Source of the DNA: an uncultured Acidobacteriaceae bacterium
Lineage (GTDB): Bacteria > Acidobacteriota > Terriglobia > Terriglobales > Acidobacteriaceae
Assembly: GCA_963800575.1 (NCBI GenBank)
Contig: CAWDBN010000013.1
Span: 4,497 to 68,496, forward strand
Direction of reading: 5' to 3'
Length of the DNA: 64,000 nucleotides
The position numbers and the translations under genes were made by a program. Positions 24,170 to 45,625 of this stretch are shown here, piece after piece. Within the stretch, counting starts at the first letter, position 1, and the number at the start of each line of letters is the position of its first letter. The notes beneath the pieces were generated by a model. The model searched no databases, was not told the DNA's origin, and was given only the letters and a program-made list of their open reading frames with translations.

Positions 24170-24395
24170 ATCGACCCCTGGATGGTGAAAAGGATGGCCA
24201 AAAACCGCTGTGCTCTCAGTCTACGCCGGATAGGTGACCACTGAACTTGTATTTCGCCGGACTCGGATGCTCCTTCCCGCTCTGGAATTGTCCACAAAAG
24301 CCGTGCAGCAGCGCGGGTGGTTACCTTCGTGCCTCACTCGTCGGAGCTATTCCCATCTTCTCCGGCTTGCCGCACACTGTCTTCAGGCCACAAGT

Positions 24396-24770
24396 ATGCA
24401 GGCACCCACCGTCAAGACCAACCGCCGTCGGCAAAGTCGCATTCAGGCTGTGCTTCCCGTTCGAGTCCGGGGCACGGACTCTTCCGGCAAGTCATTCGAA
24501 ATCCTGGCCCACACCCTCGACCTCACGGCAAATGGGGCGCGGCTGGGGTCGATTCGCCACCAGATGAAAGCGCCCGACACGCTAACCATTTTTTATCGCC
24601 AGCGCAAAATGGAATTCACCGTGGTGTGGACCAAGTTGCTGGATGGAAGAAGCGAGTACCAGGTTGGCCTGCAAGCTTTTTCGCAGGAAAAGGAAGGGTG
24701 GGGGATGAATCTTTTCATTTCCAGCATACAACCGTTAACCAGCGCCACGGCAGCGCCGGGAGTGGTGTGA
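24396..24770 (+). CDS. PilZ-domain protein
   Basis: The start is taken at MQAPTVKTN. The motifs RRQSRI...(D/L)xSxxGxR (RRRQSRIQAVLPVRV...LDLTANGARLG) match PilZ c-di-GMP binding motifs. The ORF track extends the N-terminus to 24234. Confidence 0.7.
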   Translation: MQAPTVKTNRRRQSRIQAVLPVRVRGTDSSGKSFEILAHTLDLTANGARLGSIRHQMKAPDTLTIFYRQRKMEFTVVWTKLLDGRSEYQVGLQAFSQEKEGWGMNLFISSIQPLTSATAAPGVV

Positions 24771-24781
24771 ACCGGAAAATT

Positions 24782-24946
24782 ATGCGCTATCTCCTATTCA
24801 AACTCTGGTCAAACGAAGAAGGACAGGACGTTGCTGAGTATGCCGTTATGCTGGCCGTCGTTCTCGTTATTGTAGTCAGCACCGTCCGCCTGATCGGTGC
24901 TAACGCAAGCAATGTGTTTTCGCAGGTCGGCAGCACCATCCAGTAA
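24782..24946 (+). CDS. flp: Flp-family type IVb pilin (54 aa)
   Basis: MRYLLFKLWSNEEGQDVAEYAVMLAVVLVIVVSTV... has the Flp processing/assembly motif (G/xxxxEY followed by a hydrophobic helix). It is embedded in the 3' end of the 209-aa track ORF 24317-24946. Confidence 0.75.
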   Translation: MRYLLFKLWSNEEGQDVAEYAVMLAVVLVIVVSTVRLIGANASNVFSQVGSTIQ

Positions 24947-24986: not shown

Positions 24987-25922
24987 TTAAGGGCGCGACG
25001 AGTTGCCCATCATCAGCACAAACAAAAGTGGAAGGTAGATGACTGTGGCTTGCAACACATGACGAGCGAGCATCTTCGATCGCGGGGCGTTGATGGGCAA
25101 TTTGAGAAGCGCTAGCCTGGCGCCAAAGTAGAAAAGAGCAGCGCCAAGAATCACCGCTCCCACCAGATAGATCTTTCCTGCCATGCCGAAAACACTCGGC
25201 AGAACGCTCAGTGGAATCAAAATCAGCGAGTAGGCCACGATGCGCCTAGCCGTGGATCGTCCGTCCTCTTCCACCACTGGCAGCATGCGAATTCCGCCGG
25301 CGGCGTAATCCTCCCGATAGAGCCACGCAATGGAGAAAAAATGCGGAAACTGCCACACAAAAAGGATGGCAAACAATATCAACGTGCTCCACTCCAGCCG
25401 CCCGCGTGCGGCCGTCCAACCCAAAACTCCCGGCATAGCTCCCGGAAAAGCGCCCACGAACGTGCAGATCGGCGAGACCCTTTTTAACGGCGTATAAACC
25501 GCCAGATACACCACCGATGTCAGGAGAGTCAGCAGACCGGTCAGCAGATTCGTGAAAACCGCCAGATAAATTGACCCGCCTACAGTAGCCAGCACCCCGG
25601 CCGTCGCAGCATGAGCAAGACTCATACGGCCCGCTGGCAGCGGACGCTGTGCGGTCCGGCGCATGTTCCCGTCTACCTCGTGCTCCATCACTTCATTGAG
25701 TGCCGCAGTTCCGCTTGAGACCAGTCCGATCCCCAGTAGGGCGTGTAAAAGCCCCCACGATAGCGAAGAAACCCCAGCCTTCTGCGCACCGAAATAGTAG
25801 CCACACCACGCCGTCATCACGATCAGAGAAGTCACGCGCAGCTTCATCAATTCGGCATAGTCGCGCAAGAGAGAAGTCGCTTGCTTGCGAAATAAAACCA
25901 GGGGTTGGGTCATCGCGCTCAT
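24987..25922 (-). CDS. ctaB: Protohaem IX farnesyltransferase (haem O synthase)
   Basis: UbiA-family polytopic protein. The start is chosen at MSAMTQPLV. The length and the N..E....D.....M.RT..RPLP region are typical of CtaB/CyoE. Confidence 0.85.
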   Translation of the reverse strand: MSAMTQPLVLFRKQATSLLRDYAELMKLRVTSLIVMTAWCGYYFGAQKAGVSSLSWGLLHALLGIGLVSSGTAALNEVMEHEVDGNMRRTAQRPLPAGRMSLAHAATAGVLATVGGSIYLAVFTNLLTGLLTLLTSVVYLAVYTPLKRVSPICTFVGAFPGAMPGVLGWTAARGRLEWSTLILFAILFVWQFPHFFSIAWLYREDYAAGGIRMLPVVEEDGRSTARRIVAYSLILIPLSVLPSVFGMAGKIYLVGAVILGAALFYFGARLALLKLPINAPRSKMLARHVLQATVIYLPLLFVLMMGNSSRP

Positions 25923-26124
25923 GGAAGATTCAGTGGTGTGGTTGTCGTACCGCTTCCTTACACTCGAACACGCCCTCCAAGCCTGGCAAGAGGGCAGCTC
26001 CCACAAAGCGGCCCAAATACTTAAGAATTGTATGGGTACTCCGATGGCTTTCGAAAGTCAAGTCGAAACTCGGGAATCGGCCCACCAGCCTCTGATCCCG
26101 AATCTCAGGATCCGCCCGCAACCA

Positions 26125-27540
26125 CTACTGGCTAGCCGAAACGCCGGTCCCATTGAAAGTTTCCGGCGGATCGAAAAAGCATTGATGCCACAGAGCTGCG
26201 TCGGATAATTTGCCCGCCTTCCATTGCTGAAGCGTCGGCAACGTGGCGGCCAGCATCCCTCCGTCGACCGCATCGAAGATCACGACCACCCCGGCAAGCT
26301 CCTGCGGCTTCTGCGCGAGTTCCGCGTAATCCTTGTCGAGCACGGACTTCGCGAACTCCAGTCTGAGCTGAGGGCCTGCGCTCTGCTTCTCGTCAATTTT
26401 TTCCACCGAAACGATCCTCACATTCTTGCCGCGAAGAGGCGCCCAATCTCCCGGAAAAGGCGCGGTTTCTTCGCGCGTCACATGAAACAAATCCGCCGCC
26501 ACCGATCCCGATGCAGCACTCGCCGGCGCATCGCCATCCGGAACGCTGTCGGGCATTTCGAGGCTGTTACGCCAGATCCATCCTCGTGATAGTCCGGAGA
26601 TCCTCACATGGACCCAATCCCGATTGAAGTCGAGCATCTCGAACTCATCGTGTGCGCTGGCCAGGAACAGAGTCTTGGCCGTCAGACTCGCGGTCTCCAC
26701 CACCGGCGTTCCCGACTTCTTTACCGCTACAAGATTCCTGGGATGCGCCTGATTTTTGAGAATCTCCTCCAGACTCTCTGCCTCGGCTCGCAGGCCGGAA
26801 TCTTCAACAGGTTTGTTACCCGCGGCACCGGCTTTCTCTTGCTCGGCCAAAGTCTGTGCCAGAGATGACGACAAACCGCCATTGGCGTCAGGAAGTCGAG
26901 GCTCCGGCGCTGAGAGGGCAGGTTCCGTTGCAGTTGGCGTCTTCGCCACGGGTACAGCGGCAGGTTGCCTTGCCGGAGATTGCCCCGCGGGAGTGCGGAC
27001 CGGCGGACCTTGCGCCGAAACGATCGGTGCGGGGGCCGTTGCTAGAGAAGACTTCTGCGATGGGACCGGCTTGGGCTCCGCGTTCACCGGAGCGCTCGCC
27101 CCAACTTGCTGTCCCTTGGCCGCGAGCTGATCCGCCAGTTGATCCAGCAGGTCTGCTTCCAGCCGTCCATTCGAGGTCAGTACTTGATATCCGGAACGCG
27201 CCGCGACTGGGTCCGTATACCAGGCTGTCACGGAGACGCTTACGCTAACAATCGATCCCCCGGAAGGAGCCGCCGTAACCTGAATTTTCGCCTCATAGTA
27301 GCCGCGCCGGTACCGCTCGAGGGGATGATCGGCCGAAGTCGCGAATCCTTCGAGCACTGGAAGACGTCCGGCAGTGGCGGCCTGGATTTCTTGCACAGCC
27401 TTCTCCACCTGGGCTTTGGACTGTGGGAAGGCCCGCTCTAATCCGTTGCCTTGCGCGTGGCCTCGCGGCGCACCGAAAAAAACCAGCGCCAATAGGAGTG
27501 CCGAGACTGCCGGGCTGAATTCTGCTCCGCGACGTTTCAT
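26125..27540 (-). CDS. Secreted hypothetical protein with P/A-rich linker and SH3b-like segment
   Basis: 471 aa with a signal peptide (LLLALVFFGAPRGHAQG), a low-complexity P/A/Q linker, and FNRDWVHVRISGLSRGWIWRNSLE, which resembles a bacterial SH3 strand pattern. Confidence 0.55.
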   Translation of the reverse strand: MKRRGAEFSPAVSALLLALVFFGAPRGHAQGNGLERAFPQSKAQVEKAVQEIQAATAGRLPVLEGFATSADHPLERYRRGYYEAKIQVTAAPSGGSIVSVSVSVTAWYTDPVAARSGYQVLTSNGRLEADLLDQLADQLAAKGQQVGASAPVNAEPKPVPSQKSSLATAPAPIVSAQGPPVRTPAGQSPARQPAAVPVAKTPTATEPALSAPEPRLPDANGGLSSSLAQTLAEQEKAGAAGNKPVEDSGLRAEAESLEEILKNQAHPRNLVAVKKSGTPVVETASLTAKTLFLASAHDEFEMLDFNRDWVHVRISGLSRGWIWRNSLEMPDSVPDGDAPASAASGSVAADLFHVTREETAPFPGDWAPLRGKNVRIVSVEKIDEKQSAGPQLRLEFAKSVLDKDYAELAQKPQELAGVVVIFDAVDGGMLAATLPTLQQWKAGKLSDAALWHQCFFDPPETFNGTGVSASQ

Positions 27541-27550
27541 TCCTGCACTT

Positions 27551-28750
27551 TCATTTCTGCACCAAGTCGTCGCGCATAATCCATCCGTGTTGACCGTCGT
27601 GCGTTTCTACGCCGTACCAGTAGGGCGTCGAAATCAGAATCAGGACTTCCGTGCCAGTGGGCAATGACTGCAGCGTGCTGGCAGTATGGAAGGGCGCGGA
27701 TTTCAGCGGTGCTCCCGGATCTTTCACTAGCCGCTCGAGCTGCCGGCGGAGATCTTTGACGTGCTCTTCCAAGCTCTGACCGGACGCGATCGCCGCCGGC
27801 CCGCTCCCACTCGGCAGACTCGGACCAGGCTGATCCTGACTGGGCTGATCTTGACCGGCCTGGCTTTGCATTGGCTGATTTTGCATTGGCTGGTTTTGTA
27901 TCGGCTGCTCTTGTACCGGTTGGCTCTGATCGGGCATGCTCTCGCTTGCAACCTGCGTAGTTCCGCTGGGAGCGGCATCTTGGCGACTCTCAACGGGCGC
28001 TGCCGCCGCCGGTTGCTCGGATTGCGGCACCGGCCAAGCCCCTGTCTCCGCCTGCGATGAAGAGGTTTGCTTCTTCTCCAACTTTTCCCGTCGTTCGTTC
28101 AACGCCTCGACGTTCTGCCTCTGCATGAGTTCGATCGCGTCAATGTGCTCGCGAATGTCCCGGTACTCGGCGCTTTCGACCGAACCGTCGGATTGATGCA
28201 CGATGTGGCGGAAGTCTTCCTTAAAAAGCGCATTGATGCGCAACACCGTGTTCTTCTGACCTTGAGGTTGTACGATATAGCGCACAACCAGGGTTCCTGA
28301 GTCGCTGCTATCCTTGAAGTTCCGCGGGTCAAGCGCCTGCTCGCGAACTTTGTAGAAAACCTTTCCCCCCTCAGTCCAGGCGGGAAATACGTGCGACGAG
28401 GTCGCCGCTTTTGCGCCGCTGACAAACTCGTCCTTGTTGTATTCTTTGGTTCCACGGATCACTCCGTTATCCGCCACCTCTGCCACCACCTGCTCAACCT
28501 CGCTCTCCGGCGCGGGAATGTTGACTGCCAGTCCCTCGCCGTAGTGCAGCTTATCTTTTCCACGCCCAGCCAGCGGAAGCGCACCCGGGAAGAGCAGTAG
28601 CAGTAGGACCAATCTCGCGGACGCGCGCACCCGTCCCGCCGCAGTGCAGCGGCAACTAGCGCCGCCAGCCCCTCTGCTCGCGCTGTTTCTATCTCTAATC
28701 TCGGCACGGGAGACCAACCACCCGCTCCCATCACTTCTCGACCGACCCAC
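27551..28750 (-). CDS. Secreted hypothetical protein with Q/P pentapeptide repeats and C-terminal SH3b-like domain
   Basis: 399-aa ORF with a hydrophobic signal-like segment LVLLLLLFPGALPLAG, a QxQP(M/I) repeat tract and the C-terminus LPTGTEVLILISTPYWYGVETHDGQHGWIMRDDL. The start codon is uncertain. Confidence 0.55.
   Translation of the reverse strand: MGRSRSDGSGWLVSRAEIRDRNSASRGAGGASCRCTAAGRVRASARLVLLLLLFPGALPLAGRGKDKLHYGEGLAVNIPAPESEVEQVVAEVADNGVIRGTKEYNKDEFVSGAKAATSSHVFPAWTEGGKVFYKVREQALDPRNFKDSSDSGTLVVRYIVQPQGQKNTVLRINALFKEDFRHIVHQSDGSVESAEYRDIREHIDAIELMQRQNVEALNERREKLEKKQTSSSQAETGAWPVPQSEQPAAAAPVESRQDAAPSGTTQVASESMPDQSQPVQEQPIQNQPMQNQPMQSQAGQDQPSQDQPGPSLPSGSGPAAIASGQSLEEHVKDLRRQLERLVKDPGAPLKSAPFHTASTLQSLPTGTEVLILISTPYWYGVETHDGQHGWIMRDDLVQK
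27836..27925. repeat. In-frame 15-bp tandem repeat (about 6 units) encoding QNQPM/QDQPS pentapeptides
   Basis: The units are ttgcattggctgatt / ttgcattggctggtt / ttgtatcggctgctc / ttgtaccggttggct plus degenerate flanking units, all inside CDS 27551-28750. Confidence 0.7.
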
Positions 28751-28880
28751 CGCAGCCTCCGTTTCCAGATTTCCAGAGTCTCATACTCTTGGCGTAAAGC
28801 TGTCAACCCGCCGTGGACCATTCGATTCCGATGTGACCAACGGTTCCGTTAACGTTGTAAAAAAAATGTCAAAAAACCTC

Positions 28881-28910
28881 TTGAACTTTTTCTTGCGATA
28901 GTAGTAGGAT
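28881..28910 (+). promoter_or_regulatory. Candidate sigma70-type promoter upstream of the cytochrome/oxidase operon
   Basis: TTGAAC (28881-28886), an 18-nt spacer, then TAGGAT (28905-28910), within the only AT-rich patch of the 334-bp intergenic region. There is no experimental or comparative support. Confidence 0.25.
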
Positions 28911-29084
28911 TCACCCCCGGTAGGGTGGTAGAACCTTTCGTCCACTGTTCTGCTGCCGGCCTGAATGGGAGCCACCTCCCGTTCGAGGCCTTCATTGCTG
29001 GGTGTCACCTGCGGCTTGCGCTTGGGGAAAAGCTTAGTTTCAGGAAAACCAGATTTTGATTTGATCTTGCCGAGGAGTCCGGCC

Positions 29085-30608
29085 ATGCACGTTTCGAGTC
29101 GTTTTCATCTCCGCAACATCTTGCAGCTCGCGACTTCGTTCGCGGCTGTCGCTCTGGTTCTTGCATCCGTAGTCCTCACCTGCAGCCAGCCCGCGCATGC
29201 CCTGCCGGCGTTCGCCCGGAAGTACGGGCTGCGCTGCTCGGCCTGCCACGAGTCCTGGCCGATGCTGAATTACTTTGGACAAAAGTTCAAAGACAACGGG
29301 TATCAGTTGATGAACGATCGCGATGCCCCGATTTGGCAGAACCCTGGATACTGGCCGGTGGTCTTTCGCATCACGCCGATCTGGCACCGGGTGAGCGTCG
29401 GCAAGGAAGACGTTGACACCTACGCGGGCGGAGTCCTCACGGGTACGAATGCGGCGGTCCAGCGCATCTCAAGTTCCGGCTTCGACCTGAGCGGACTCGA
29501 CTTCCATACCGGCGGAACCCTGGAAAAGAACATTTCGTTCTATTTACTTCCGTCCTCTGATCCTACCGGCGCTTTCCACTTTGAGCAGGTCTTTGTGCGC
29601 TTTGACAATATTGCCCACAGCCCCTGGCTTAATTTCAAGCTCGGTCGATTCGAACTCGACAACCTGCTTTCCGAAAAGCGCATTCTCACCCTGACCGGGA
29701 ACGGCGGCGTTTATCAGACTTATCACTTCATCCCGCAAGGTGACGGGAACATCTTTGGGCAGATCGGCGACAACCAGCTCGGTATCGAATATCTGGGGCA
29801 CTCCGTGGACGATCGGACGCGAATTTCCGCGTCTCTTGTCAGCTCGAGCGATGGCAACGTGAACCTCAGTACCACAGCCAACGCCTACACCGCGTTCTTT
29901 GCCGGAAGCCAGGCTTTTGACGCCGGCAGGCTGGGGGTACAACGGGTCGGCTTCTATGCCATGGCTGGAGAGGCGTCAACGTATTATCTGACCTCTAATG
30001 GCGGGGTTCCAATTCCTGGCTCCGGAATCGGCAACAAGAGCTTCACGCGCGAAGGGTTCGTAGGGCAGTTCTACGCGGGCCCGCACATCGGCCTCACGAT
30101 CGTGACTCAGCATGGCTCGGATAACGCGTGGTTCGGGCAGGGTTATGGCGGTGCAGAAGCCACGGATGGCAACGGAGGCAACACCTGCGGCGCTCCTCCG
30201 TGCCCCCCAAACAATGTGCCGGGAACGACTCTTCCGGTCGGCTCACAAGCGCCCAGTTGGAACGGCGCCACCTTCGAGGGTCACTACATCTACAGTCCGC
30301 AGCTGATTTTCATCAGCCGGTATGAGTTTGAGAAAATGTCGCAGCAGGCCAACGGGTCGGGGTACGGCGCTTTGGTCACAGGAGCCAACGGATTCACAGG
30401 CCCCATGCCTTCCAACCTGGGCAACATCTCAACCTACACCATCGGCTTCCGCTACAACCCGTTCATGACCAGCCGCGCCGGCTTAGCCTGGCACAACGAG
30501 TACAACTGGCTGCACCAGGACGGCACTGGCCCGGCAAATCTTACGACCGGGGCGCTTACCAACCTCAACACCAGCGAAATTCTGATGGGACTCGACTTCG
30601 ACTTCTAG
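29085..30608 (+). CDS. Fused monohaem cytochrome c / beta-barrel outer-membrane protein (Cyc2/Cyt572-like architecture)
   Basis: ATG 29085 is preceded by GAGGAG with a 7-nt spacer. A signal peptide ends in AHA. A single CXXCH (FARKYGLRCSACH) follows directly after the predicted cleavage site. The following ~460 aa are beta-rich and G/S/T/N/Y-rich, ending in ...ILMGLDFDF (an aromatic C-terminal OMP signature). Confidence 0.7.
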   Translation: MHVSSRFHLRNILQLATSFAAVALVLASVVLTCSQPAHALPAFARKYGLRCSACHESWPMLNYFGQKFKDNGYQLMNDRDAPIWQNPGYWPVVFRITPIWHRVSVGKEDVDTYAGGVLTGTNAAVQRISSSGFDLSGLDFHTGGTLEKNISFYLLPSSDPTGAFHFEQVFVRFDNIAHSPWLNFKLGRFELDNLLSEKRILTLTGNGGVYQTYHFIPQGDGNIFGQIGDNQLGIEYLGHSVDDRTRISASLVSSSDGNVNLSTTANAYTAFFAGSQAFDAGRLGVQRVGFYAMAGEASTYYLTSNGGVPIPGSGIGNKSFTREGFVGQFYAGPHIGLTIVTQHGSDNAWFGQGYGGAEATDGNGGNTCGAPPCPPNNVPGTTLPVGSQAPSWNGATFEGHYIYSPQLIFISRYEFEKMSQQANGSGYGALVTGANGFTGPMPSNLGNISTYTIGFRYNPFMTSRAGLAWHNEYNWLHQDGTGPANLTTGALTNLNTSEILMGLDFDF

Positions 30609-30618
30609 AGAGGATGAC

Positions 30619-31497
30619 ATGCGGACACGATTGCAGAATTGGACGCTTTTGCTCAGCTCAGCTGCCCTTTTGGCGTTTCCGTCGGCTTCCTCGGCGCAGC
30701 TCACGACATTCGACATACAGACACGTCTTGGTACGGAAAGCCACGTCGGAAACGTCACCGGTCACGCCAAGGACGCTGCACCTGATTACCGGCGCTATTG
30801 CGTCGGCTGCCACGGCGATCTTGGAGACGGAAACGGCGAAAACGCTGTCTGGATGCAGCCTCCGATGTACCAACAGCCACGCGACTTCCAGTTGGGTGTA
30901 TTTAAGTGCCGCTCCACTCCCACTGGAACCTTGCCCACAGACCAGGATCTGTTTGACGCCATCACTCGCGGCTTTGACCGGTCCAATATGCCGCCGTGGA
31001 ACACTTTTACCAAACAGCAACGCGCCGACCTCGTCGCCTGGGTGAAGCACTTCTCTCCCCGCTTTAAAACCGAGAAACCTGGAACGCCAATCACCATTCC
31101 TCCTGAGCCCGAAGTCACCCCTGAGCGTATCAAGGCTGGGCGCGAGGTATTTGCCAAAGTGCAGTGCTGGAAGTGCCACGGCGTGCAAGGCATGGCGAAC
31201 GGTCCGTCCGCTTCCACCCTTACCGATGATCTCGGCCGTCCAATCGCGCCTTTCAACTTCACTGACGGATCCCGGCCGAAGTGCGGCGACACTGATCAGG
31301 ATATTTACCGGATCTTCATGACCGGCTTGGACGGCACTCCGATGCCTTCATTTGCCGACAACATCAAGCCCGATGAGGCCTGGGATTTGGTTTTCTATTT
31401 GCGAACGTTTATGGCTCAGAAGAGCCGAGAGAAAGAACTGGCGAAACAACTAGGCTTGAAGCCGGTTGATCCCAACGCTCCGGTGGCGCAACAATAG
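30619..31497 (+). CDS. Periplasmic dihaem class I cytochrome c
   Basis: 292 aa with a signal peptide (AFPSASSAQ) and two CXXCH motifs (CVGCH, CWKCH), each followed by a distal Met-Pro (SNMPPW, GTPMPSF). It starts 10 bp after the upstream gene. Confidence 0.85.
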   Translation: MRTRLQNWTLLLSSAALLAFPSASSAQLTTFDIQTRLGTESHVGNVTGHAKDAAPDYRRYCVGCHGDLGDGNGENAVWMQPPMYQQPRDFQLGVFKCRSTPTGTLPTDQDLFDAITRGFDRSNMPPWNTFTKQQRADLVAWVKHFSPRFKTEKPGTPITIPPEPEVTPERIKAGREVFAKVQCWKCHGVQGMANGPSASTLTDDLGRPIAPFNFTDGSRPKCGDTDQDIYRIFMTGLDGTPMPSFADNIKPDEAWDLVFYLRTFMAQKSREKELAKQLGLKPVDPNAPVAQQ

Positions 31498-31549
31498 GCG
31501 GAGAAAAGCGTCGTGTCACCGATTTGCTTTTCGTCTTAAAGGAGAAATC

Positions 31550-32293
31550 ATGAGGAAGCGATTCAATCCCGCGGTCGTACTATCGCTGATAGTTTTAGTT
31601 GGCTGTGCAGCGTTGATCTTGGGTCAGAAAGTCAACGCTGCCGGAGAAGGCAAGATTACCGGTACGGTAAAACTGAGTGGCACGGCTCCGCACATGAGGG
31701 GCATCGACATGTCGAAAGACCCGTACTGCGTTAAGGCTAATCCGACTCCCGCCCACTACCAAAACGTAGAGGTTGGTTCGGGCGAAGGACTGGAAAATGT
31801 GGTTGTCTACATCTCCGACTGGAGCGGCACGGCTGAGGTAACGACAACGATCCCCGTATTCGATCAAAAGAACTGCATGTATGTGCCGCACGTGTTGGCA
31901 ATGGATGTAGGTGAGACATTCAAGGTGGTCACCAGCGATCAGACAGCCCACAACATACACCCGCTGCCCAACCCGATGATTAATGTCGGGTGGAATCAGT
32001 CTCAGCCGCCGGGAGCACCACCGGTCGAGAAGAGTTGGAAAGCTGCGGAGTTTATTCCGGTGCAGTGCAACATCCATCCTTGGATGCACGGTTATTTCGC
32101 TGTGGTCAAAGGCCCTTACGCAACCACCGATGCGAACGGCTCCTTCACCATCAGCAACGTGCCGCCCGGAACTTACACGGTGACTGCGTGGCATGAACCC
32201 GACCCCGCCCTGCCGCAAAATACCCAAGGTCAAAAGGTGACAGTCGCCGCCGGGGGCGCGGCATCCGCCGACTTTACTTTCAAGGCGAAGTAA
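31550..32293 (+). CDS. Cupredoxin (type 1 copper) protein with C-terminal carboxypeptidase-regulatory-like beta domain
   Basis: ATG 31550 is preceded by AAAGGAG, and a signal peptide is present. Candidate T1 Cu ligands are H (AHNIHP) and C-x2-H-x2-M (VQCNIHPWM), the same loop spacing as amicyanin CTPHPFM. The C-terminal segment is GSFTISNVPPGTYTVTAWHE. Confidence 0.7.
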   Translation: MRKRFNPAVVLSLIVLVGCAALILGQKVNAAGEGKITGTVKLSGTAPHMRGIDMSKDPYCVKANPTPAHYQNVEVGSGEGLENVVVYISDWSGTAEVTTTIPVFDQKNCMYVPHVLAMDVGETFKVVTSDQTAHNIHPLPNPMINVGWNQSQPPGAPPVEKSWKAAEFIPVQCNIHPWMHGYFAVVKGPYATTDANGSFTISNVPPGTYTVTAWHEPDPALPQNTQGQKVTVAAGGAASADFTFKAK

Positions 32294-32345
32294 GGGCAAC
32301 GGAAGTAGGGAACTGAGAGATCTGCAAAATCATCATCTGAACAAC

Positions 32346-32379
32346 CGAATCGCCGCAATTAGGCTCTTGCGGCGATTCG
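32346..32379 (+). promoter_or_regulatory. Perfect 13-bp-stem hairpin between the cupredoxin gene and coxB
   Basis: cgaatcgccgcaa (32346-32358) pairs perfectly with ttgcggcgattcg (32367-32379) across an 8-nt loop. No U-tract follows, so it is not a canonical intrinsic terminator. Confidence 0.5.
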
Positions 32380-32416
32380 ATTATGAAGGCCGGGTTTCCG
32401 GCTAAAGGCGGACGAT

Positions 32417-33220
32417 ATGGCGAAAATATTTGCGGTGACGATCGTTGTGATCGCAATTGCTTCGGCGATTCCCATCGTGATGCACATGTGGCCGATGCCG
32501 CCCGACATCTCCACCCACGGCCATCTGATCGACGAGCAGTATGCCGATACGATGCTGGAAGCCGGTATTTCCTTCCTGGCCTCTCAGTTCCTGCTCGCCT
32601 TTTTCATCTGGAAGTTTTCCAACCATAAGCCCAGCGACAAGATTAAGCGTTTCCCTGGCGGAGCTGCTGGATTGGTAATAGCCGCTTTCCTGTTGGTAGG
32701 TACCGAATGCCTGGCTTTGGGTGTGTTCGGAGTAAAGGCCTGGGCTAGCGTTTATCTCACCCCTCCCGCAGCCGACGCGCTGCCGGTGCAGGTGCAGGCG
32801 GGACAGTTCGCGTTTTATTTCCGTTATCCCGGACCGGACGGAATCTTCGGCCCAATTCACGCCGACCAGATCAGCGAGGCCAACGCGAATTTCTTCGGGC
32901 TCGATACTACGCATGACCAGGCTTCCAAGGATGACATCGTCACCGCTGAGATGGCCATTCCTGTGAACCGTGAAATTCACTTACTCATGCATTCGAAGGA
33001 TGTAGGCCATTCCTTCTACGTCCCCGAATTGCGCGTCCAGCAGGACTTCGTTCCCGGCTTGGACGTTACTCTTCATTTCACGGCCACTAAAATCGGGAAG
33101 TACGAAATCGTCTGCACCCAGCTTTGCGGCCTCGGGCATTACAACATGAAGGCCTATCTCGAAGTGAAGTCTCAGGAAGATTACGACGCTTGGATCAAAC
33201 AGCAGGCAGCTCTGCAGTAG
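32417..33220 (+). CDS. coxB: Cytochrome c oxidase subunit II (no fused cytochrome c domain)
   Basis: 267 aa with two N-terminal TM helices. The CuA site is HSFYVPEL ... CTQLCGLGHYNM. Confidence 0.9.
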   Translation: MAKIFAVTIVVIAIASAIPIVMHMWPMPPDISTHGHLIDEQYADTMLEAGISFLASQFLLAFFIWKFSNHKPSDKIKRFPGGAAGLVIAAFLLVGTECLALGVFGVKAWASVYLTPPAADALPVQVQAGQFAFYFRYPGPDGIFGPIHADQISEANANFFGLDTTHDQASKDDIVTAEMAIPVNREIHLLMHSKDVGHSFYVPELRVQQDFVPGLDVTLHFTATKIGKYEIVCTQLCGLGHYNMKAYLEVKSQEDYDAWIKQQAALQ

Positions 33221-33271
33221 CGCTGAATTTGCGCACGATGTGGCCCAAACATCTGGCTTGAGGTGAGCACA

Positions 33272-35056
33272 ATGCACGACATGTCCGCACATGCAGTGGG
33301 TCATGGAGCCCCGACCAGCTTCATCCGGAAGCACGTGTTCAGTACTGATCATAAGGTCATCGGCAAGCAGTATTACGCGCTGGCTTTGGTCGCTGCCTTC
33401 TTCGGTATGTTTCTTTCCTGGCTCATGCGTATCCATCTGGGGTGGGGCAGTTTCGCGATCCCAGGGCTGCATCTGCTCTCGAAGAACGGCGCCCCGGGCG
33501 ACGTAATGACGCCGGAGTACTATCTCCAACTGATGACCATGCACGGCACCATTATGGTGTTCTTCGTGCTCACCACCGCCCCCTTTGCAGCCTTCGGCAA
33601 TTTCTTTTTGCCTATCCAGACAGGCGCGGAAGACATGCCCTTCCCGCATTTCAACATGATGTCGTTCTGGGTCACCTTCACAGCCTTCTTGCCTATCGTT
33701 GCGTCATTCTTTGTCAGTGATGGGCCCACCCTGGGCGGCTGGACACAGTATGCCCCACTGAGCGCGATCGGTCCCGTTGGCGGTCCTGGCGAGGGTTGGG
33801 GAGTGATTCTCTGGGCGACCTCGATTGGTCTTTTCTGCATTGGCCAGTTACTGGGTTCGCTGAACTTCATCACTACCACGCTTGATATGCGTTGCAAAGG
33901 CATGTCCCTGATGCGGCTCCCGCTCAGCACCTGGGGATGGTTCATTACTTCGATCATGGGCTTGACGGCGTTTGCCGTGCTGATGCCCGCCTGCATCCTT
34001 CTCATTCTCGATCACGTGGCCGGAACCAGCTTCTTCGTAGCCTCGAATCTGGTGATTAACGACCAGATGTTGCCGCACTCCGGCGGATCGACTCTGCTTT
34101 GGCAGCACCTGTTCTGGTTCTTCGGCCATCCCGAGGTCTACATCGCAATCGTCCCCGGCATGGGCATCGTTTCCCACGTTCTCATCACGAACATGCGCCG
34201 GCCGATGCTCAGCCACCGAGTGCTCATTTATTCCATGGGATCGCTGGCCGTCCTCAGCTACATGGTCTACGGACACCACATGTTCGTCAGCGGGATGAAT
34301 CCCGTCTCTTCGCTGGCCTTCTCGTTCCCAACGCTGGTCATCACCATTCCCTCCACCATCGTCGTGCTGATTTGGCTGGGTAGCCTCTATGGCTCCAAGT
34401 TGCGGATCAACGCCGCCTCGCTATTCGCGCTCGGGTTCATTTCGATGTTCATCAGCGGCGGCGTGAGCGGCTTTTTCCTGGCTCAGCCTTCCATCGACAT
34501 CATGCTGCACGCCACCTATTTCGTGGTCGGCCACTTCCATCTGGTGATGGGCGTTGCGGCCATGTTCGGCATCTTCGCGGGAACCTACTTCTGGTTCCCC
34601 AAGATGACCGGCCGCATGATGAATGAGACTCTGGGCAAGGTTCACTTCTGGATGAGTTTCGTAGGTGCCTACTGCATCTTTATGCCGTTCCACTACCTGG
34701 GAATTGCCGGCAACGTGCGCCGCTACCAGGCTTTCACCGACGATTACCTGATCCCGCTGATCCCCGTTCATAAGTTCATCACCGTAGCGGCGCTGTTCAC
34801 CGGGGCTGCCCAGCTGGTTTTCCTTTACAACCTGATCCACAGCCGGTTCTGGGGTGCACATGCGCCGAACGACAACCCGTGGGAAGGGACATCCCTCGAA
34901 TGGAGCACGGCCACGCCGCCGCCCCATAACAACTTTGGCGACAAGATGCCCGTGGTTTATCACGATCCTTATCAGTATAGCGTCGAGGGCGCCAGCGCCG
35001 ACTACATCATGCAGACTTCGCCGGAGAGTGTTCATAGCCCGGACGAAGAAAAATAA
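33272..35056 (+). CDS. ctaD: Cytochrome c oxidase subunit I (A-family haem-copper oxidase)
   Basis: About 594 aa with 12 TM helices and conserved blocks (GHPEVYI, HHMF, VVGHFH). ATG 33272 is preferred (GAGGTG lies 6 nt upstream) over the track GTG at 33263. Confidence 0.92.
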   Translation: MHDMSAHAVGHGAPTSFIRKHVFSTDHKVIGKQYYALALVAAFFGMFLSWLMRIHLGWGSFAIPGLHLLSKNGAPGDVMTPEYYLQLMTMHGTIMVFFVLTTAPFAAFGNFFLPIQTGAEDMPFPHFNMMSFWVTFTAFLPIVASFFVSDGPTLGGWTQYAPLSAIGPVGGPGEGWGVILWATSIGLFCIGQLLGSLNFITTTLDMRCKGMSLMRLPLSTWGWFITSIMGLTAFAVLMPACILLILDHVAGTSFFVASNLVINDQMLPHSGGSTLLWQHLFWFFGHPEVYIAIVPGMGIVSHVLITNMRRPMLSHRVLIYSMGSLAVLSYMVYGHHMFVSGMNPVSSLAFSFPTLVITIPSTIVVLIWLGSLYGSKLRINAASLFALGFISMFISGGVSGFFLAQPSIDIMLHATYFVVGHFHLVMGVAAMFGIFAGTYFWFPKMTGRMMNETLGKVHFWMSFVGAYCIFMPFHYLGIAGNVRRYQAFTDDYLIPLIPVHKFITVAALFTGAAQLVFLYNLIHSRFWGAHAPNDNPWEGTSLEWSTATPPPHNNFGDKMPVVYHDPYQYSVEGASADYIMQTSPESVHSPDEEK

Positions 35057-35097
35057 TCTTCAAGCAGGTCGTTGGGTTTCAGCAGGAGAGTAGCAGT

Positions 35098-35775
35098 ATG
35101 GCAACCACAGTCCACGAACCGCCGAAAATCGACGACCGCCTGCCGAGCCACGGCTCGGGGAACGGCTGGCGCAATCTTGTTCCTGCCGATGGCGAATTGC
35201 GCGGCGTCAAGGATTCTTCCCCTCCCCCCGCGAGCACCGGAATCTGGGTAGGCTTGGCGGCCATCACCATGAGTTTTGCCGCCTTCACCAGCGCGCTGAT
35301 CGTTCGTCAGGGGACTGCACCTTTGGTGCACATCACTTTACCCCCAGTGCTTTACCTGAACACGCTCGTGATCGTCGCCAGCAGCTTAACGCTCGAAATA
35401 GCACGCCGCAGGATTGCGGCCTTTATGGGTGGCGGCCTGGCAGGCAAAGCCAGCCAACAGGAGAATCCCGCACGCTGGCTGTATATCACCTTGTTTCTGG
35501 GACTGCTCTTTGTTGCGGGACAAACCTTTGCCTGGATTCAACTCAAATCTCAAGGGTTCGGCCTCGCCACCAACATCAGCTACTCGTTCTTCTATGTACT
35601 GACTGTCGCTCACGCTCTGCACGTGTTCGGAGGGCTCGGCGGTCTGGTCCGGGTGATTGGCAAACTGAACAAATCGGTCCTGCGAAGGAGCACTCTGGAC
35701 GCCACTTCGCGTTACTGGCATTTCATGGGTGTGCTGTGGGTGTATCTGCTTTTGCTGCTTTGGATGAAGCTCTGA
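35098..35775 (+). CDS. ctaE: Cytochrome c oxidase subunit III
   Basis: 225 aa and polytopic. The C-terminal segment YWHFMGVLWVYLLLLLW is typical of subunit III. AGGAGA lies 8 nt upstream. Confidence 0.85.
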   Translation: MATTVHEPPKIDDRLPSHGSGNGWRNLVPADGELRGVKDSSPPPASTGIWVGLAAITMSFAAFTSALIVRQGTAPLVHITLPPVLYLNTLVIVASSLTLEIARRRIAAFMGGGLAGKASQQENPARWLYITLFLGLLFVAGQTFAWIQLKSQGFGLATNISYSFFYVLTVAHALHVFGGLGGLVRVIGKLNKSVLRRSTLDATSRYWHFMGVLWVYLLLLLWMKL

Positions 35776-35813
35776 GCGACGACGCTCGAACCCAGTCAAA
35801 GGTAGGAGGCAAC

Positions 35814-36449
35814 GTGAGTCAAGCCGATCTTTCAATTCACGGTCAGGTGTCGCGAACCGATGCGACGGAGTTTATGACCGCACCCACATTCTCGGTCGCG
35901 GCCAAGAAAATGGCGATGTGGCTGTTCATCATCGCAGACACCGCGACCTTTGCCGGTTGTCTGGTCGCCTACGGATTCATCCGCAACGCCACTCCCGATT
36001 GGCCAAGACCTTTTCACAGTATCTCGAACGTACTGGTGATGACACTGATTCTGCTCACCAGCAGCTTGACCATGCTCATCGCAGAACGCCACGCCTGGCT
36101 GGGTGACAAAGCCAAAGCGTTTCGCTGGACCATGATCACCGCGGTTTGCGGAATCATGTTCGCCGCTCTCCACCTGCGGGAATGGATGGGCCTGATCGGA
36201 GAAGGCGCGACGCTATTTCACAATCCCTGGGGCACGCCTTTATTCAGTTCGATGTTTTTCAGCATCACGGGCCTGCACCTGCTGCACGTAACCGGCGGAG
36301 TGGTTGCTCTCATCGCCGTGGGCCTGCGCTACCAGGGCGGACGCTACAACGCCGATGACCTCGAAATCACAGGGCTCTATTGGCATTTCGTGGATTTGGT
36401 TTGGATGTTTGTTGTGCCGCTGGTCTATCTTTTGAATCTATCCCACTAA
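35814..36449 (+). CDS. Second haem-copper oxidase subunit III-family protein
   Basis: A GTG start at 35814 is preceded by GGTAGGAGG. The segments MAMWLFIIADTATFAG... and YWHFVDLVWMFVVPLVY match the subunit III/CyoC family. Confidence 0.8.
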   Translation: MSQADLSIHGQVSRTDATEFMTAPTFSVAAKKMAMWLFIIADTATFAGCLVAYGFIRNATPDWPRPFHSISNVLVMTLILLTSSLTMLIAERHAWLGDKAKAFRWTMITAVCGIMFAALHLREWMGLIGEGATLFHNPWGTPLFSSMFFSITGLHLLHVTGGVVALIAVGLRYQGGRYNADDLEITGLYWHFVDLVWMFVVPLVYLLNLSH

Positions 36450-36474
36450 GACAGACACGCAGGAGCGAATCTCT

Positions 36475-36786
36475 ATGACTACCGCCGAAACCCATAAGAA
36501 TAGTGGAATGACGAATGATCTGATCGTCTTCGTTTGTATTCTGGCCCTGGCGGGGCTACAGTTCGTGATCGCATATCAGGACATTAGCGCGTCCCAGATG
36601 TTAGTCCGCATGCTCTCGGTCGCCGTGATTGAGGCTGCCCTGGCGCTGCTGTTCTTTATGCATTTGGCCGCGAATCGCGGATTGTTGTGGTTTGTCGGAA
36701 TCTTCACCGTCTTTGTGCTCCTTGCCATGCAATACGGCTGGACGGATAGCTTCCGGCTGACCAGCGGTGTACCATGGGCAAAGTAG
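36475..36786 (+). CDS. Cytochrome c oxidase subunit IV (prokaryotic CoxD/CtaF-like)
   Basis: 103 aa with three hydrophobic helices, an AGGAG RBS, and a position after the subunit III genes. Confidence 0.7.
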   Translation: MTTAETHKNSGMTNDLIVFVCILALAGLQFVIAYQDISASQMLVRMLSVAVIEAALALLFFMHLAANRGLLWFVGIFTVFVLLAMQYGWTDSFRLTSGVPWAK

Positions 36787-37109
36787 CCAAAGCAACCATG
36801 AAGCTCTGGAAACCAATCTCGTTTGGGTGCATTGCGCTGGTCGGGCTGATCATCCTGCTAGCTCCAGTGCCAGCCTCCGCCCAGAGCTGCGCTCTGTGTT
36901 ATACCCAGGCCGCGGCATCGGGCTCTCGAATGATTCAGGCCTTGAAGAGTGGCATCCTGATCCTGATCGCTCCGCCGACCTTCATGAGCATCGGGTTGAT
37001 CTTCGTTTGCTATCGCAAACGCAATCAGACGCGTAACGACAGCGCCGAGTCAGACAGCGATTGGCGCAAAGTCGACGACTCAGACGATTTCTCATCCAGG
37101 AACTGGTAG
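36774..37109 (+). CDS. Small two-TM membrane protein with CxxC (CALCY) loop and acidic tail; hypothetical
   Basis: The ORF overlaps the subunit IV stop by 13 bp. It has two hydrophobic helices flanking SCALCYTQAAASG. There is no recognisable RBS, and an alternative start exists at MKLWKP (36798). Confidence 0.45.
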   Translation: MGKVAKATMKLWKPISFGCIALVGLIILLAPVPASAQSCALCYTQAAASGSRMIQALKSGILILIAPPTFMSIGLIFVCYRKRNQTRNDSAESDSDWRKVDDSDDFSSRNW

Positions 37110-37135
37110 GACGCTTCCCGTAGAGACGCTTCGGA

Positions 37136-41499: not shown

Positions 41500-41539
41500 C
41501 GATTTAGCCCCAATAGAAAATTTCGGAAACAAGTACTTT

Positions 41540-44900: not shown

Positions 44901-44911
44901 CCCGAGTCTCT

Positions 44912-45625
44912 TCACGAGCGCAAAAACTCCAAAGTCAAAACCCATGCCTGCCGCGCCGAGTGCGGTTCATAAGCCGCCCTCTCGTCACAAAAGAATCCAT
45001 GGTCGGCGCGGGAGAACACTACATTCACATAAACCTTCTGCTGTGCACTCAAAGCATCGGTCACTCCCTTCCGGTACTCCGGCGTGAGGCGCTTGTCCAA
45101 TCCACCCCAGATGAGCAACGACGGCGCCCGCAGCTTCGCCACTCGATCCAGCAATCCCGGAGCGATTCCTCCTCCATAAAACGAAACCGCACTGCGCAAT
45201 GGAACTACGCTGTTAGCAAGAAAAGAGACCCGCCCACCCATGCAGAACCCCACACTCGAAATCTCGTTACCTTTTATTTTCGCATTCGATCTCAGCCACT
45301 CATATGCGGATCGTAGGTCTGCTTCCGCAGTCTCTGTTGTCACTGCCTCGTAGTGCGACTTCAAAGAGGGAAAGTCCGTATAGCTGCCCTCAAACCCCGG
45401 CGGCGCCGTGCGATGAAACAGCTCCGGGGCAATCACCACGTATCCCTCCCCAGCAAACCGGTCGCTCATGCTGCGAATGTGATGGTTAACCCCAAATGCT
45501 TCCTGGAACAACAGCAGCCCAGGATGCGGCCCGCTCGCCTCCGGACGCGCCACATAAGCTGCCATCCGCGTTCCATCCGAAACGGCCAGTTCCACCTTCT
45601 CTTTCAAGATCGCAATTCCGCTCAT
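44912..45625 (-). CDS. Dienelactone hydrolase family protein
   Basis: 237 aa. It has PGLLLFQEAFGVN, the nucleophile elbow GFCMGG and a C-terminal ADHGF motif. Confidence 0.85.
   Translation of the reverse strand: MSGIAILKEKVELAVSDGTRMAAYVARPEASGPHPGLLLFQEAFGVNHHIRSMSDRFAGEGYVVIAPELFHRTAPPGFEGSYTDFPSLKSHYEAVTTETAEADLRSAYEWLRSNAKIKGNEISSVGFCMGGRVSFLANSVVPLRSAVSFYGGGIAPGLLDRVAKLRAPSLLIWGGLDKRLTPEYRKGVTDALSAQQKVYVNVVFSRADHGFFCDERAAYEPHSARQAWVLTLEFLRS

Follow-up and report, generated by a model that had tools for sequence, protein, structure and literature searches.

The locus raises two questions: whether the protein encoded at 29085-30608 of the window (the whole stretch of DNA analysed, 64,000 nt) holds a single haem in an outer-membrane pore, and where electrons taken up by such a protein would go. 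Cyc2 is the main genetic marker for inferring microbial iron oxidation. As the gene is usually found by itself, it is disputed what it signifies beyond the classical iron oxidisers. In the window a cyc2-like gene is physically linked with presumed electron carriers and a terminal oxidase, a linkage found across phyla, which gives a testable electron path. Judged from its sequence motifs and predicted structure, the protein is very probably a Cyc2-type cytochrome-porin. With a probability of roughly 0.6, we read it as the outer-membrane entry of a self-contained respiratory chain from extracellular electrons to O2.

The gene and its parts were located as follows.

29072-29077, + strand: ribosome-binding site GAGGAG, 7 nt 5' of the ATG at 29085, read directly from the sequence
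29085-30608, + strand: cyc2-like gene, predicted fusion of a monohaem cytochrome c and a 16-strand porin, 507 aa plus stop codon
29085-29201, + strand: signal peptide, aa 1-39, with predicted cleavage at A-H-A / L-P, from sequence features
29199-29225, + strand: Cyc2 signature A-L-P-A-F-A-R-K-Y, aa 39-47, which fits AXPXFAR[Q/K][T/Y]
29235-29249, + strand: C-S-A-C-H, aa 51-55, the protein's single CXXCH, for attachment of haem c
29259-29267, + strand: PXL motif P-M-L, aa 59-61, four residues past the CXXCH (H55-E-S-W-P59-M-L61)
29358-30605, + strand: beta-barrel domain, aa 92-507, 16 predicted strands (AlphaFold2), C-terminal ...GLDFDF
30186-30203, + strand: CGAPPC loop, aa 368-373, the only other Cys pair besides CSACH

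The enclosing open reading frame runs from 28965 to 30608 (+), with the ATG at 29085 as the best start, and an independent JGI gene call on an identical metagenome contig gave the same 507-aa product. A start at 28965 was rejected: it lacks a ribosome-binding site, would give an N-terminus that is not of signal type, and is at odds with the JGI gene call. Promoter and terminator scans of 28500-37400 performed no better than on shuffled sequence, and neither Rfam nor tRNA scans gave a hit in the window. The protein had zero Pfam or NCBIfam matches, and a PDB sequence search returned noise only (E above 1). Homologs at E<=1e-3 numbered more than 5000 in a library clustered at 90% identity, all of them unnamed or 'hypothetical'.

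The N-terminus, judged by eye, passes from a charged start through a hydrophobic stretch of about 21 residues to A-H-A/L. Residues 8-32 were modelled as a helix by AlphaFold2, and the -1 Ala of the cleavage site is conserved in 86% of the family (57 members). After cleavage, a protein of about 468 aa would remain. The original prediction had placed the only CXXCH about 10 residues past the signal-peptidase site, in agreement with Cys51 as residue 12 of the mature protein if cleaved at AHA/LP. It had also named CGAPPC as the only further Cys pair, and cysteines were indeed found only at positions 33 (within the signal peptide), 51, 54, 368 and 373. A chance CXXCH at such composition and length was calculated for about 1 per 1000 proteins. 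No variation in the motif or its flanks occurs among the 21 diverse full-length relatives that were aligned, nor among the 57 broader family members.

The published sequence criteria for Cyc2 are a signal peptide, a single N-terminal CXXCH, AXPXFAR[Q/K][T/Y], PXL and a length of >365-375 aa (Keffer et al. 2021, PMC8406198), and the signature upstream of the CXXCH is stated to be unique to Cyc2 (PMC8406198). Every one of these features was found in the protein. Three residues separate Y47, the end of the signature, from Cys51. Among the 57 family members P41, F43, A44 and R45 of the signature are invariant, and in the PXL motif P59 is conserved in 100% and L61 in 98%. For a second axial haem ligand, no His or Met besides His55 reaches 40% in the 57-member alignment; His239 is nearly invariant, but among close relatives only. 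The CGAPPC loop sits in a lineage-specific insertion (residues 354-382) of low model confidence. It is not a family feature and is probably an exposed disulfide loop.

Structure prediction with AlphaFold2, run without haem, gave 16 antiparallel strand elements with a pTM of 0.76, and 70 residues had a pLDDT below 50. In Foldseek the PDB entry that matched best was OprP (2o4v_A, E 2.6e-12; target-normalised TM-score 0.61), and the hits after it were further porins, for the most part general porins with 16 strands. There were 231 PDB fold matches with E <= 0.001, and the best 50 listed were all outer-membrane barrels. OprP/OprO is also the template reported for Cyc2 (PMC8406198). The chain ends in ...GLDFDF, and residue 507 is Phe in 81% of the 57 family members, so that the C-terminal aromatic residue pointed out from the sequence is common in the family. 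The composition described with it held in part: G/N/S/T/Y make up 40% of the mature protein as expected, and the alternation of hydrophobic and polar residues in the predicted strands proved only loose. Between the signal peptide and the 16-strand barrel stands a haem c peptide of about 50 residues with the full Cyc2 signature. The single CXXCH, the modelled membrane-type barrel and the OprP match together uphold the claim of a single-haem cytochrome fused to an outer-membrane barrel, and with the published sequence criteria they also support the Cyc2-type architecture.

Loci with the Cyc2 signature were gathered using a degenerate DNA pattern of the motif with fixed spacing, which returned at least 120 genome loci, including Mariprofundus, other Zetaproteobacteria, Acidithiobacillus and Chlorobiaceae. 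In the Mariprofundus, Zetaproteobacteria and Acidithiobacillus loci the motif has the same spacing as in the protein of the window. For Cyc2 sequences chosen by the motif itself, and taken from MAGs of those genera and not from biochemically tested strains, profile comparison gave 99.0% probability over 149 N-terminal columns (Acidithiobacillus group), 97.7% over 79 N-terminal columns (Mariprofundus) and 99.4% over 326 columns (Nitrospira group). By this comparison the N-terminal domain appears clearly homologous to Acidithiobacillus-group and Mariprofundus Cyc2. When the motif was trimmed off, the barrel reached 40% probability against Acidithiobacillus-type Cyc2 and 0.3% against Mariprofundus. 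The same trimmed test between two accepted Cyc2 clusters gave 2.1%, i.e. these are mutually undetectable too.

On sequence grounds, the protein is assigned to a large, distinct subfamily, mostly of Acidobacteriota, which accounts for about 15% of the Cyc2-signature gene sample (species-representative genomes). Its nearest relatives outside the subfamily belong to Krumholzibacteriia, Nitrospinota and Nitrospira. In the published similarity network (PMC10654088), Cyt572 of Leptospirillum ('Cluster 3') lies beside densely clustered homologs from Acidobacteria and Nitrospira. From this network, and because the nearest relatives include Nitrospira and Nitrospinota, we infer a placement in Cyc2 Cluster 3. 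The host of the window is a relative of Ca. Sulfotelmatobacter, a peat/soil acidobacterium, and its close relatives come from peat or permafrost (loci palsa_246, SPRUCE). There were no cultured carriers of the subfamily among the matches listed, and all named cluster members are MAGs. A literature search returned no paper tying Sulfotelmatobacter to Cyc2 or iron oxidation; unclassified Acidobacteriota MAGs have been flagged as predicted iron oxidisers in surveys.

As to where the electrons would go, the cyc2-like gene heads an operon of nine genes, all on the + strand and separated by gaps of 10-123 nt or overlapping: after it come a dihaem cytochrome c, a cupredoxin, coxB, coxA, two cox3 genes, cox4 and a small membrane protein. 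The neighbouring genes are listed below.

24987-26006, - strand: ctaB, haem O synthase (TIGR01473 above cutoff), divergent from the operon
26125-27540 and 27551-28750, - strand: two secreted proteins with weak SH3-like matches, divergent from the operon
30619-31497, + strand: secreted dihaem class-I cytochrome c (CVGCH, CWKCH), two Pfam Cytochrome_CBB3 domains
31547-32293, + strand: amicyanin-like type-1 copper cupredoxin with a C-terminal CarboxypepD_reg domain (Pfam)
32417-33220, + strand: coxB, cytochrome c oxidase subunit II, CuA motif CTQLCGLGHYNM (Pfam COX2, TIGR02866)
33263-35056, + strand: coxA, haem-copper oxidase subunit I (Pfam COX1, E 1.6e-121)
35098-35775, + strand: first cox3-family subunit (Pfam COX3)
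35871-36449, + strand: second cox3-family subunit (Pfam COX3), open reading frame from 35736, start uncertain
36475-36786, + strand: prokaryotic cytochrome oxidase subunit IV (Pfam COX4_pro)
36774-37109, + strand: predicted membrane protein of 111 aa, the last same-strand gene before the convergent glnD

The dihaem cytochrome c begins 10 nt after the stop codon of the cyc2-like gene, and its best solved relative is PDB 6h5l_B (E 3.8e-56). The cupredoxin starts with a signal peptide or membrane anchor. Its structure model was poor (pLDDT 65.8, with values under 50 over much of the cupredoxin region, residues 98-105 and 125-154), and a fold search with this model was confident for the C-terminal Ig-like domain only, with amicyanin at rank 22 (E 0.07). 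The cupredoxin assignment was therefore based on the family profile, which matches amicyanin (E 1e-9), and on the copper ligands H135, C174, H177 and M180, which are invariant in the family. The best NCBIfam match of coxA is CtaD_CoxA, below its curated cutoff. Since CoxB carries CuA, the oxidase is expected to take electrons from periplasmic carriers, not from quinol. On the opposite strand, close relatives keep the synteny of ctaB, and throughout the Acidobacteriota loci the SH3-like pair stays syntenic with the cyc2-like gene; the secreted pair may lie outside the system.

Gene order was also compared between loci. In 13 of the 14 subfamily loci that extend far enough, the dihaem cytochrome c lies directly 3' of the cyc2-like gene; the cupredoxin is next in 10 of 11 informative loci, and coxB is next in 9/11. 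Loci with the conserved order come from Acidobacteriota, Gemmatimonadales and a Chloroflexi MAG (41-87% identity), and two subfamily loci (L079, L113) are without cox genes downstream. In the wider sample, a cupredoxin homolog stands beside Cyc2-signature genes in 29 of 120 sampled loci (from a list of at least 120), including Nitrospira. The module in Nitrospira and other phyla consists of Cyc2, dihaem cytochrome and cupredoxin, and cox genes were not detected in the 8-kb stretches sampled there.

Taken together as a mechanism, the protein would be exported by Sec and cleaved after Ala39, haem would be attached at Cys51 and Cys54 with His55 as axial ligand, and the BAM machinery would insert the barrel into the outer membrane. 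Both chain ends are proposed to face the periplasm, given the even number of strands, and the haem peptide would lie in the pore or at its periplasmic mouth, where dissolved Fe(II) entering the pore could reduce the haem. The electron would then pass to the dihaem cytochrome c and/or the cupredoxin, on to CuA of CoxB and to haem a3-CuB, where an aa3-type oxidase would reduce O2 and pump protons. It is likely that the cyc2-like protein feeds the co-encoded oxidase; for Fe(II) as the physiological donor we see odds only slightly better than even. Such a chain may supplement the organotrophy of a heterotrophic acidobacterium in acidic, low-oxygen, Fe(II)-rich zones of peat or soil.

With the same architecture and direction, the donor may instead be reduced humics or hydroquinones, Mn(II) or another soluble extracellular reductant, which we regard as unlikely. 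For Ca. Manganitrophaceae, Cyc2 has been put forward as a possible Mn(II) oxidase (PMC9040806). According to the literature, Cyc2 homologs are present in many bacteria that are not known to oxidise iron, and they are commonly carried by humic-lake bacteria, for which dissolved organic matter has been proposed as electron donor. The habitat of the close relatives, peat, where hydroquinones and humics are abundant, or permafrost, points the same way. However, all biochemically tested members (A. ferrooxidans Cyc2, Cyt572 and PV-1 Cyc2) oxidise Fe(II), and a pore of 16 strands that has its haem inside is considered to pass small dissolved species only, which argues against bulky humics. The direction could also be the opposite one: under anoxic conditions the protein would serve as an outlet through which respiration delivers electrons to Fe(III) or humics outside the cell, as might suit the relatives of Ca. 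Sulfotelmatobacter, which are described as facultative anaerobes. This is improbable given an operon that holds an O2-reducing cytochrome c oxidase and two carriers of high-potential type, is without quinol dehydrogenases or multihaem cytochromes, and keeps its linkage to the oxidase across phyla.

A role outside respiration appears quite improbable, be it as a channel that brings in copper, iron or haem for building the oxidase, as a sensor of redox state or as an outer-membrane cytochrome that detoxifies peroxide. An open haem coordination site would be possible where no second axial ligand is conserved, and a part in oxidase biogenesis would agree with a cyc2-like gene that always accompanies the oxidase or its carriers, with ctaB nearby; yet proven Fe(II) oxidases carry the Cyc2 signature too, and the modules of Nitrospira and other phyla, cox-less in the 8-kb stretches sampled, make up an electron-transfer set and not an assembly set. 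That the protein is no membrane barrel at all, being a soluble or periplasmic cytochrome with a beta-rich domain, is hardly credible: the 70 residues of low confidence leave some room for it, whereas the 16 antiparallel strands at pTM 0.76, the outer-membrane barrels that fill the best 50 of 231 fold matches, and the C-terminal aromatic ...DFDF with Phe507 in 81% of 57 family members all speak for a barrel. The preferred reading is the respiratory one, in which electrons enter through the cytochrome-porin and end at O2.

What is new here is the operon context of the cyc2-like gene; the Cyc2-type protein itself is of an already known kind. A wider proposal, which we make tentatively and at somewhat less than even odds, is that abundant Acidobacteriota of peat and soil (Terriglobia, among them relatives of Ca. 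Sulfotelmatobacter) and some Gemmatimonadales possess a complete extracellular Fe(II)-to-O2 chain in a single operon, built from parts that are non-orthologous to those of the rus system. If true, significant iron oxidisers of acidic, low-oxygen soils would have been overlooked among organisms taken for organoheterotrophs or sulfate reducers, and Cyc2, dihaem cytochrome and cupredoxin would form a module for electron uptake that is widespread and extends to Nitrospira and other phyla. In acidic peat and permafrost soils the host lineage is dominant, and carbon storage there is under the control of iron cycling. The locus also marks three gaps in annotation: a large subfamily carries the label "hypothetical", neither Pfam nor NCBIfam has a model for the cytochrome-porin, and for the partner cupredoxin the label is no more than "carboxypeptidase regulatory-like domain-containing protein".

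Among known systems, the rus operon of Acidithiobacillus, with the layout cyc2-cyc1-cup-coxBACD and rus at its end (PMC10654088), is similar in gene order: cytochrome-porin, dihaem cytochrome c, cupredoxin and coxB-coxA-coxC-coxD, here at 29085-36786. A dihaem cytochrome follows cyc2 directly in the Acidithiobacillus locus L022 as well, but the dihaem cytochrome of the window has 19% identity to it (E 0.004) and is not an ortholog of the c4-type Cyc1. The cupredoxin of the window differs in being amicyanin-like and in its extra CarboxypepD_reg domain. No rusticyanin or AcoP chains occurred in the 60 listed of its 73 PDB sequence matches (E <= 1), and no rusticyanin or any second cupredoxin gene was found within 29085-37109. 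Cyc2 of A. ferrooxidans shares the signal peptide, the single N-terminal CXXCH, the PXL motif and a barrel of about 420 aa, and the P-x-F-A-R-[Q/K] signature has identical spacing in the Acidithiobacillus protein (474 aa in locus L022). In contrast, Acidithiobacillus has FARQT where the window protein has FARKY, and the barrels are barely alignable after motif removal (40% probability). The hosts differ too, an extreme acidophile there and a peat/soil acidobacterium here. As far as the sequences tell, the operon of the window mirrors the rus operon by analogy, not by orthology.

Cyc2 of Mariprofundus ferrooxydans PV-1 ('Cluster 1', with the Mariprofundus locus L003, 473 aa, and the Zetaproteobacteria locus L052 as examples) has the FARKY-type signature at the same spacing and a predicted 16-strand fusion like the protein of the window, but similarity of the barrels is undetectable once the motif is trimmed. 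Cluster 1 cyc2 genes usually lie outside aa3 oxidase operons, and their hosts typically use cbb3-type oxidases. Leptospirillum Cyt572 is likewise a fused monohaem cytochrome-porin, with iron-oxidase activity; it has an unusual haem and stands on a long branch in the Cyc2 tree (PMC8406198). OprP/OprO and general 16-strand porins are the best structural match of the barrel, at about 12% identity, and unlike the protein of the window they have neither an N-terminal haem peptide nor a CXXCH. In MtoAB, PioAB and MtrCAB, too, electrons cross the outer membrane by way of a cytochrome inside a barrel. These systems use a separate 26-strand barrel and a decahaem cytochrome, whereas the protein of the window is predicted to be one chain with 16 strands and one haem.

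The cyc2-like gene lies in an open reading frame at 28965-30608 (+). Its ATG at 29085, the start originally assigned, is preceded by GAGGAG at 29072-29077 and was also called independently in an identical contig from JGI metagenome sample 3300081828, giving a product of 507 aa with cysteines at 33, 51, 54, 368 and 373 only. The original prediction of a sole haem motif was borne out by a single CXXCH (C51-S-A-C-H55). The N-terminus reads as a putative Sec signal peptide ending A-H-A/L-P; with this cleavage Cys51 would be mature residue 12, close to the roughly 10 residues proposed. The one further Cys pair expected, CGAPPC, was located at residues 368-373, within a lineage-specific insertion of low model confidence. 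Richness in G/N/S/T/Y, also anticipated, reached 40% of the mature protein, which ends in the aromatic residue foreseen (...GLDFDF). The haem motif and its flanks were invariant in every full-length relative examined, which excludes a chance origin of the motif. The initial observation on this protein is confirmed.

Published criteria for Cyc2 (PMC8406198, Keffer et al. 2021) are a signal peptide, one CXXCH, a length above ~365 aa, the Cyc2-specific AXPXFAR[Q/K][T/Y] just upstream of CXXCH, PXL four residues downstream and a porin of 16 strands similar to OprO/OprP. The sequence motifs are matched exactly at the N-terminus, which reads A39-L-P-A-F-A-R-K-Y47-G-L-R-C51-S-A-C-H55-E-S-W-P59-M-L61. 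An AlphaFold2 model (mean pLDDT 75.8, pTM 0.76), built from an alignment of 22 sequences of diverse relatives, comprised a signal helix, a short helical stretch surrounding the haem site and, in agreement with the beta-barrel proposed earlier, 16 predicted strand elements in residues 92-506. Foldseek against the PDB ranked OprP (2o4v_A) first (E 2.6e-12), followed by other outer-membrane barrels, mostly 16-strand general porins. Given the full signature and the OprP-like 16-strand model, the reading as a Cyc2/Cyt572-type fused porin-cytochrome was upheld, and the product is assigned as a Cyc2-type cytochrome-porin with a probability of about 0.9. The Cyc2 family and its fused architecture are already known.

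No family was found for the protein in Pfam or NCBIfam, and no relative among PDB sequences. More than 5000 proteins matched at E <= 1e-3 in a library clustered at 90% identity (a lower bound), with 2329 representatives at 50% clustering, all unnamed or "hypothetical" in the clustered libraries. The nearest named relatives belong to Candidatus Sulfotelmatobacter (Acidobacteriota; 82-90% identity). End-to-end alignment was obtained for 14 of 91 full-length sampled proteins (41-87% identity; 11 Acidobacteriota, 2 Gemmatimonadales and 1 MAG labelled Chloroflexi), referred to here as the subfamily. The best match beyond it, from Krumholzibacteriia, shared 32% identity across 296 residues, and matches from Nitrospinota and Nitrospira ranked next. 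In a published similarity network (PMC10654088) Leptospirillum Cyt572 is the neighbour of a cluster formed by homologs from Acidobacteria and Nitrospira, and we therefore assign the subfamily tentatively to Cyc2 "Cluster 3".

A degenerate DNA pattern for P-x-F-A-R-[Q/K]-x4-C-x2-C-H-x3-P was scanned over one genome per GTDB species. At least 120 loci were recovered (about 2 expected by chance, own calculation), and all 120 listed (L handles) encode a Cyc2-signature protein. Among those listed are Mariprofundus (L003), another Zetaproteobacterium (L052), Acidithiobacillus (L022), Chlorobiaceae (L015) and Ca. Nitrospira defluvii (L010); the motif, with identical spacing, is therefore common to recognised iron-oxidiser lineages and the window protein. 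Acidobacteriota genomes carry at least three kinds of Cyc2-signature protein: the window type, a ~430-aa type reading FARKYGVKCYTCHTVPPALNKNG... and a FARQTG type otherwise typical of Proteobacteria. The non-window types occur at L019, L045, L046, L091, L106 and L109 (one) and at L064 and L120 (another). Because the compared sequences had been selected by motif, profile comparisons were repeated without everything up to the PXL proline.

Match probabilities and aligned columns in profile-profile comparison of the window subfamily, full and motif-trimmed
Acidithiobacillus-type: full 99.0% (E 9.5e-18), 149 columns; trimmed 40%
Mariprofundus: full (single sequence) 97.7%, 79 columns; trimmed 0.3%
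Nitrospira: full 99.4%, 326 columns; trimmed 97.3%, 291 columns
Second acidobacterial type: full 99.4%, 388 columns; trimmed 95%
Ignavibacteria/Chlorobi: trimmed 95.6%
Control, Acidithiobacillus-type against Mariprofundus: trimmed 2.1%

From the trimmed values and the 2.1% control, the window porin diverges no more than accepted Cyc2 clusters do from one another. This agrees with the published statement that Cyc2, Cyt572 and strain PV-1 Cyc2 are homologous in the N-terminus only (PMC5566968).

The genes following the cyc2-like gene share its strand and either overlap or are spaced 10-123 nt apart.

Genes downstream of the cyc2-like gene
30619-31497 (+), secreted dihaem class-I cytochrome c
31547-32293 (+), 248-aa protein, cupredoxin-like
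32417-33220 (+), coxB, with CuA motif
33263-35056 (+), coxA
35098-35775 and about 35871-36449 (+), two cox3-family genes
36475-36786 (+), COX4_pro gene
36774-37109 (+), 111-aa predicted membrane protein

A convergent glnD comes next, and ctaB (haem O synthase) lies upstream of the cyc2-like gene on the opposite strand. Divergent from the cyc2-like gene, 26125-27540 (-) and 27551-28750 (-) encode secreted low-complexity proteins whose C-termini give weak SH3-like matches; about a dozen Acidobacteriota loci have the pair in this position, and in one (L113) it is downstream on the same strand.

The window neighbours were searched by tblastn against the 120 loci, and counts were made over those subfamily loci whose downstream sequence was long enough. 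The dihaem cytochrome was directly downstream in 13/14, the cupredoxin next in 10/11 and coxB next in 9/11, the Gemmatimonadales and Chloroflexi-labelled loci included. Outside the subfamily, a cupredoxin homologue adjoined the Cyc2-signature gene in 29 of the 120 loci listed (Nitrospira, Holophagaceae, Thermoanaerobaculia, Myxococcota and others); a dihaem cytochrome homologue did so in 23 of the 120. Cyc2, dihaem cytochrome and cupredoxin therefore form a recurrent module, to which the window subfamily adds an aa3-type oxidase operon.

Public annotation of the 248-aa protein goes no further than "carboxypeptidase regulatory-like domain-containing protein" or, from JGI, "plastocyanin". A profile of 15 homologues matched amicyanin (E 1e-9), and His135, Cys174, His177 and Met180 (C-x2-H-x2-M) were invariant among homologues. 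The protein is read from sequence as a probable type-1-copper cupredoxin carrying an extra Ig-like domain; the cupredoxin part of its AlphaFold2 model was too weak to confirm the fold. Amicyanin-like cupredoxins with the invariant His/Cys/His/Met, fused to CarboxypepD_reg, adjoin Cyc2-signature genes in many phyla (L009, L010, L012, L025, L028, L051, L065, L068, L080, L081, L094, L095, L099, L107, L110) and may serve FARKY-type Cyc2 proteins in general as a periplasmic partner.

Elsewhere in the window, 43575-44945 (-) encodes a 456-aa protein with one N-terminal CXXCH (CQSCH), HH... and HMH motifs and a C-terminal Cu2_monoox_C (copper type II monooxygenase) match just above the Pfam cutoff (E 3.1e-5); it looks like a fusion of a cytochrome c with a copper monooxygenase-like domain. 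A 450-aa protein at 40336-41688 (-) has two CXXCH and matches reaction-centre cytochrome (PufC-like) and NCBIfam 'c_type_nonphoto', its C-terminal half (~200 aa) being without match. The gyrase/topoisomerase IV subunit A match at 55880-57307 (+) spans profile positions 1-369 of 432 only and is overlapped in another frame by a second long ORF, 57141-58589 (+), which may reflect a frameshift or assembly error. Over the first 36 kb GC skew stays close to zero, and from about 38000 to 64000 it is strongly and persistently negative (-0.15 to -0.32, 2-kb windows). ORF 24317-24946 has in its C-terminal part, at about 24785-24946 (+), a short frame ending ...MRYLLFKLWSNEEGQDVAEYAVMLAVVLVIVVSTVRLIGANASNVFSQVGSTIQ that looks by eye like a Flp-type pilin and adjoins a PilZ-domain protein (24234-24770).

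Beyond the domain architecture, fold prediction, cofactor-binding motifs and conserved operon documented here, the cytochrome-porin would be exported to the outer membrane and hold its haem within the pore or at its periplasmic opening; a conserved second axial ligand was looked for across the family alignment and none was found. Electrons taken from Fe(II) outside the cell would reach O2 by way of the carriers. That the protein feeds the co-encoded oxidase is probable, and Fe(II) is slightly favoured as its donor. Reduced organic matter, a proposed Cyc2 substrate in other bacteria, and Mn(II), proposed elsewhere (PMC9040806), are candidate alternative donors. Cyc2 homologs often occur in bacteria for which iron oxidation is not known (PMC5566968), the function of Cluster 3 is considered the least certain (PMC8406198), and FeGenie lists that cluster as possibly reductive. 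Unclassified Acidobacteriota MAGs are among the predicted iron oxidisers of metagenome surveys (PMC13594681). No literature was found that describes the subfamily, the operon linking it to an oxidase or the cupredoxin that recurs beside it, nor any tying Sulfotelmatobacter to Cyc2; with incomplete coverage, this is absence of evidence only. The operon context makes cyc2, a disputed marker gene, directly testable.

The dihaem cytochrome matched PDB 6h5l chain B over 212 residues (55-266; E 3.8e-56) at ~50% identity, our own estimate from the printed alignment. This is a 'conserved hypothetical cytochrome protein' crystallised with the HAO-like enzyme in the Kuenenia stuttgartiensis HAO structure, and it serves that enzyme as dihaem redox partner. 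Anammox bacteria and the window oxidase operon thus use one carrier family. The rus operon of Acidithiobacillus, ordered cyc2-cyc1-cup-coxBACD-rus (PMC10654088), is parallel in layout, and at the Acidithiobacillus locus (L022) a dihaem cytochrome likewise directly follows the Cyc2-signature gene. The parts of the two operons correspond by analogy and not by orthology: the window dihaem cytochrome has 19% identity to an Acidithiobacillus Cyc1-like protein, the window cupredoxin is amicyanin-like, and the window operon is without a rusticyanin gene.
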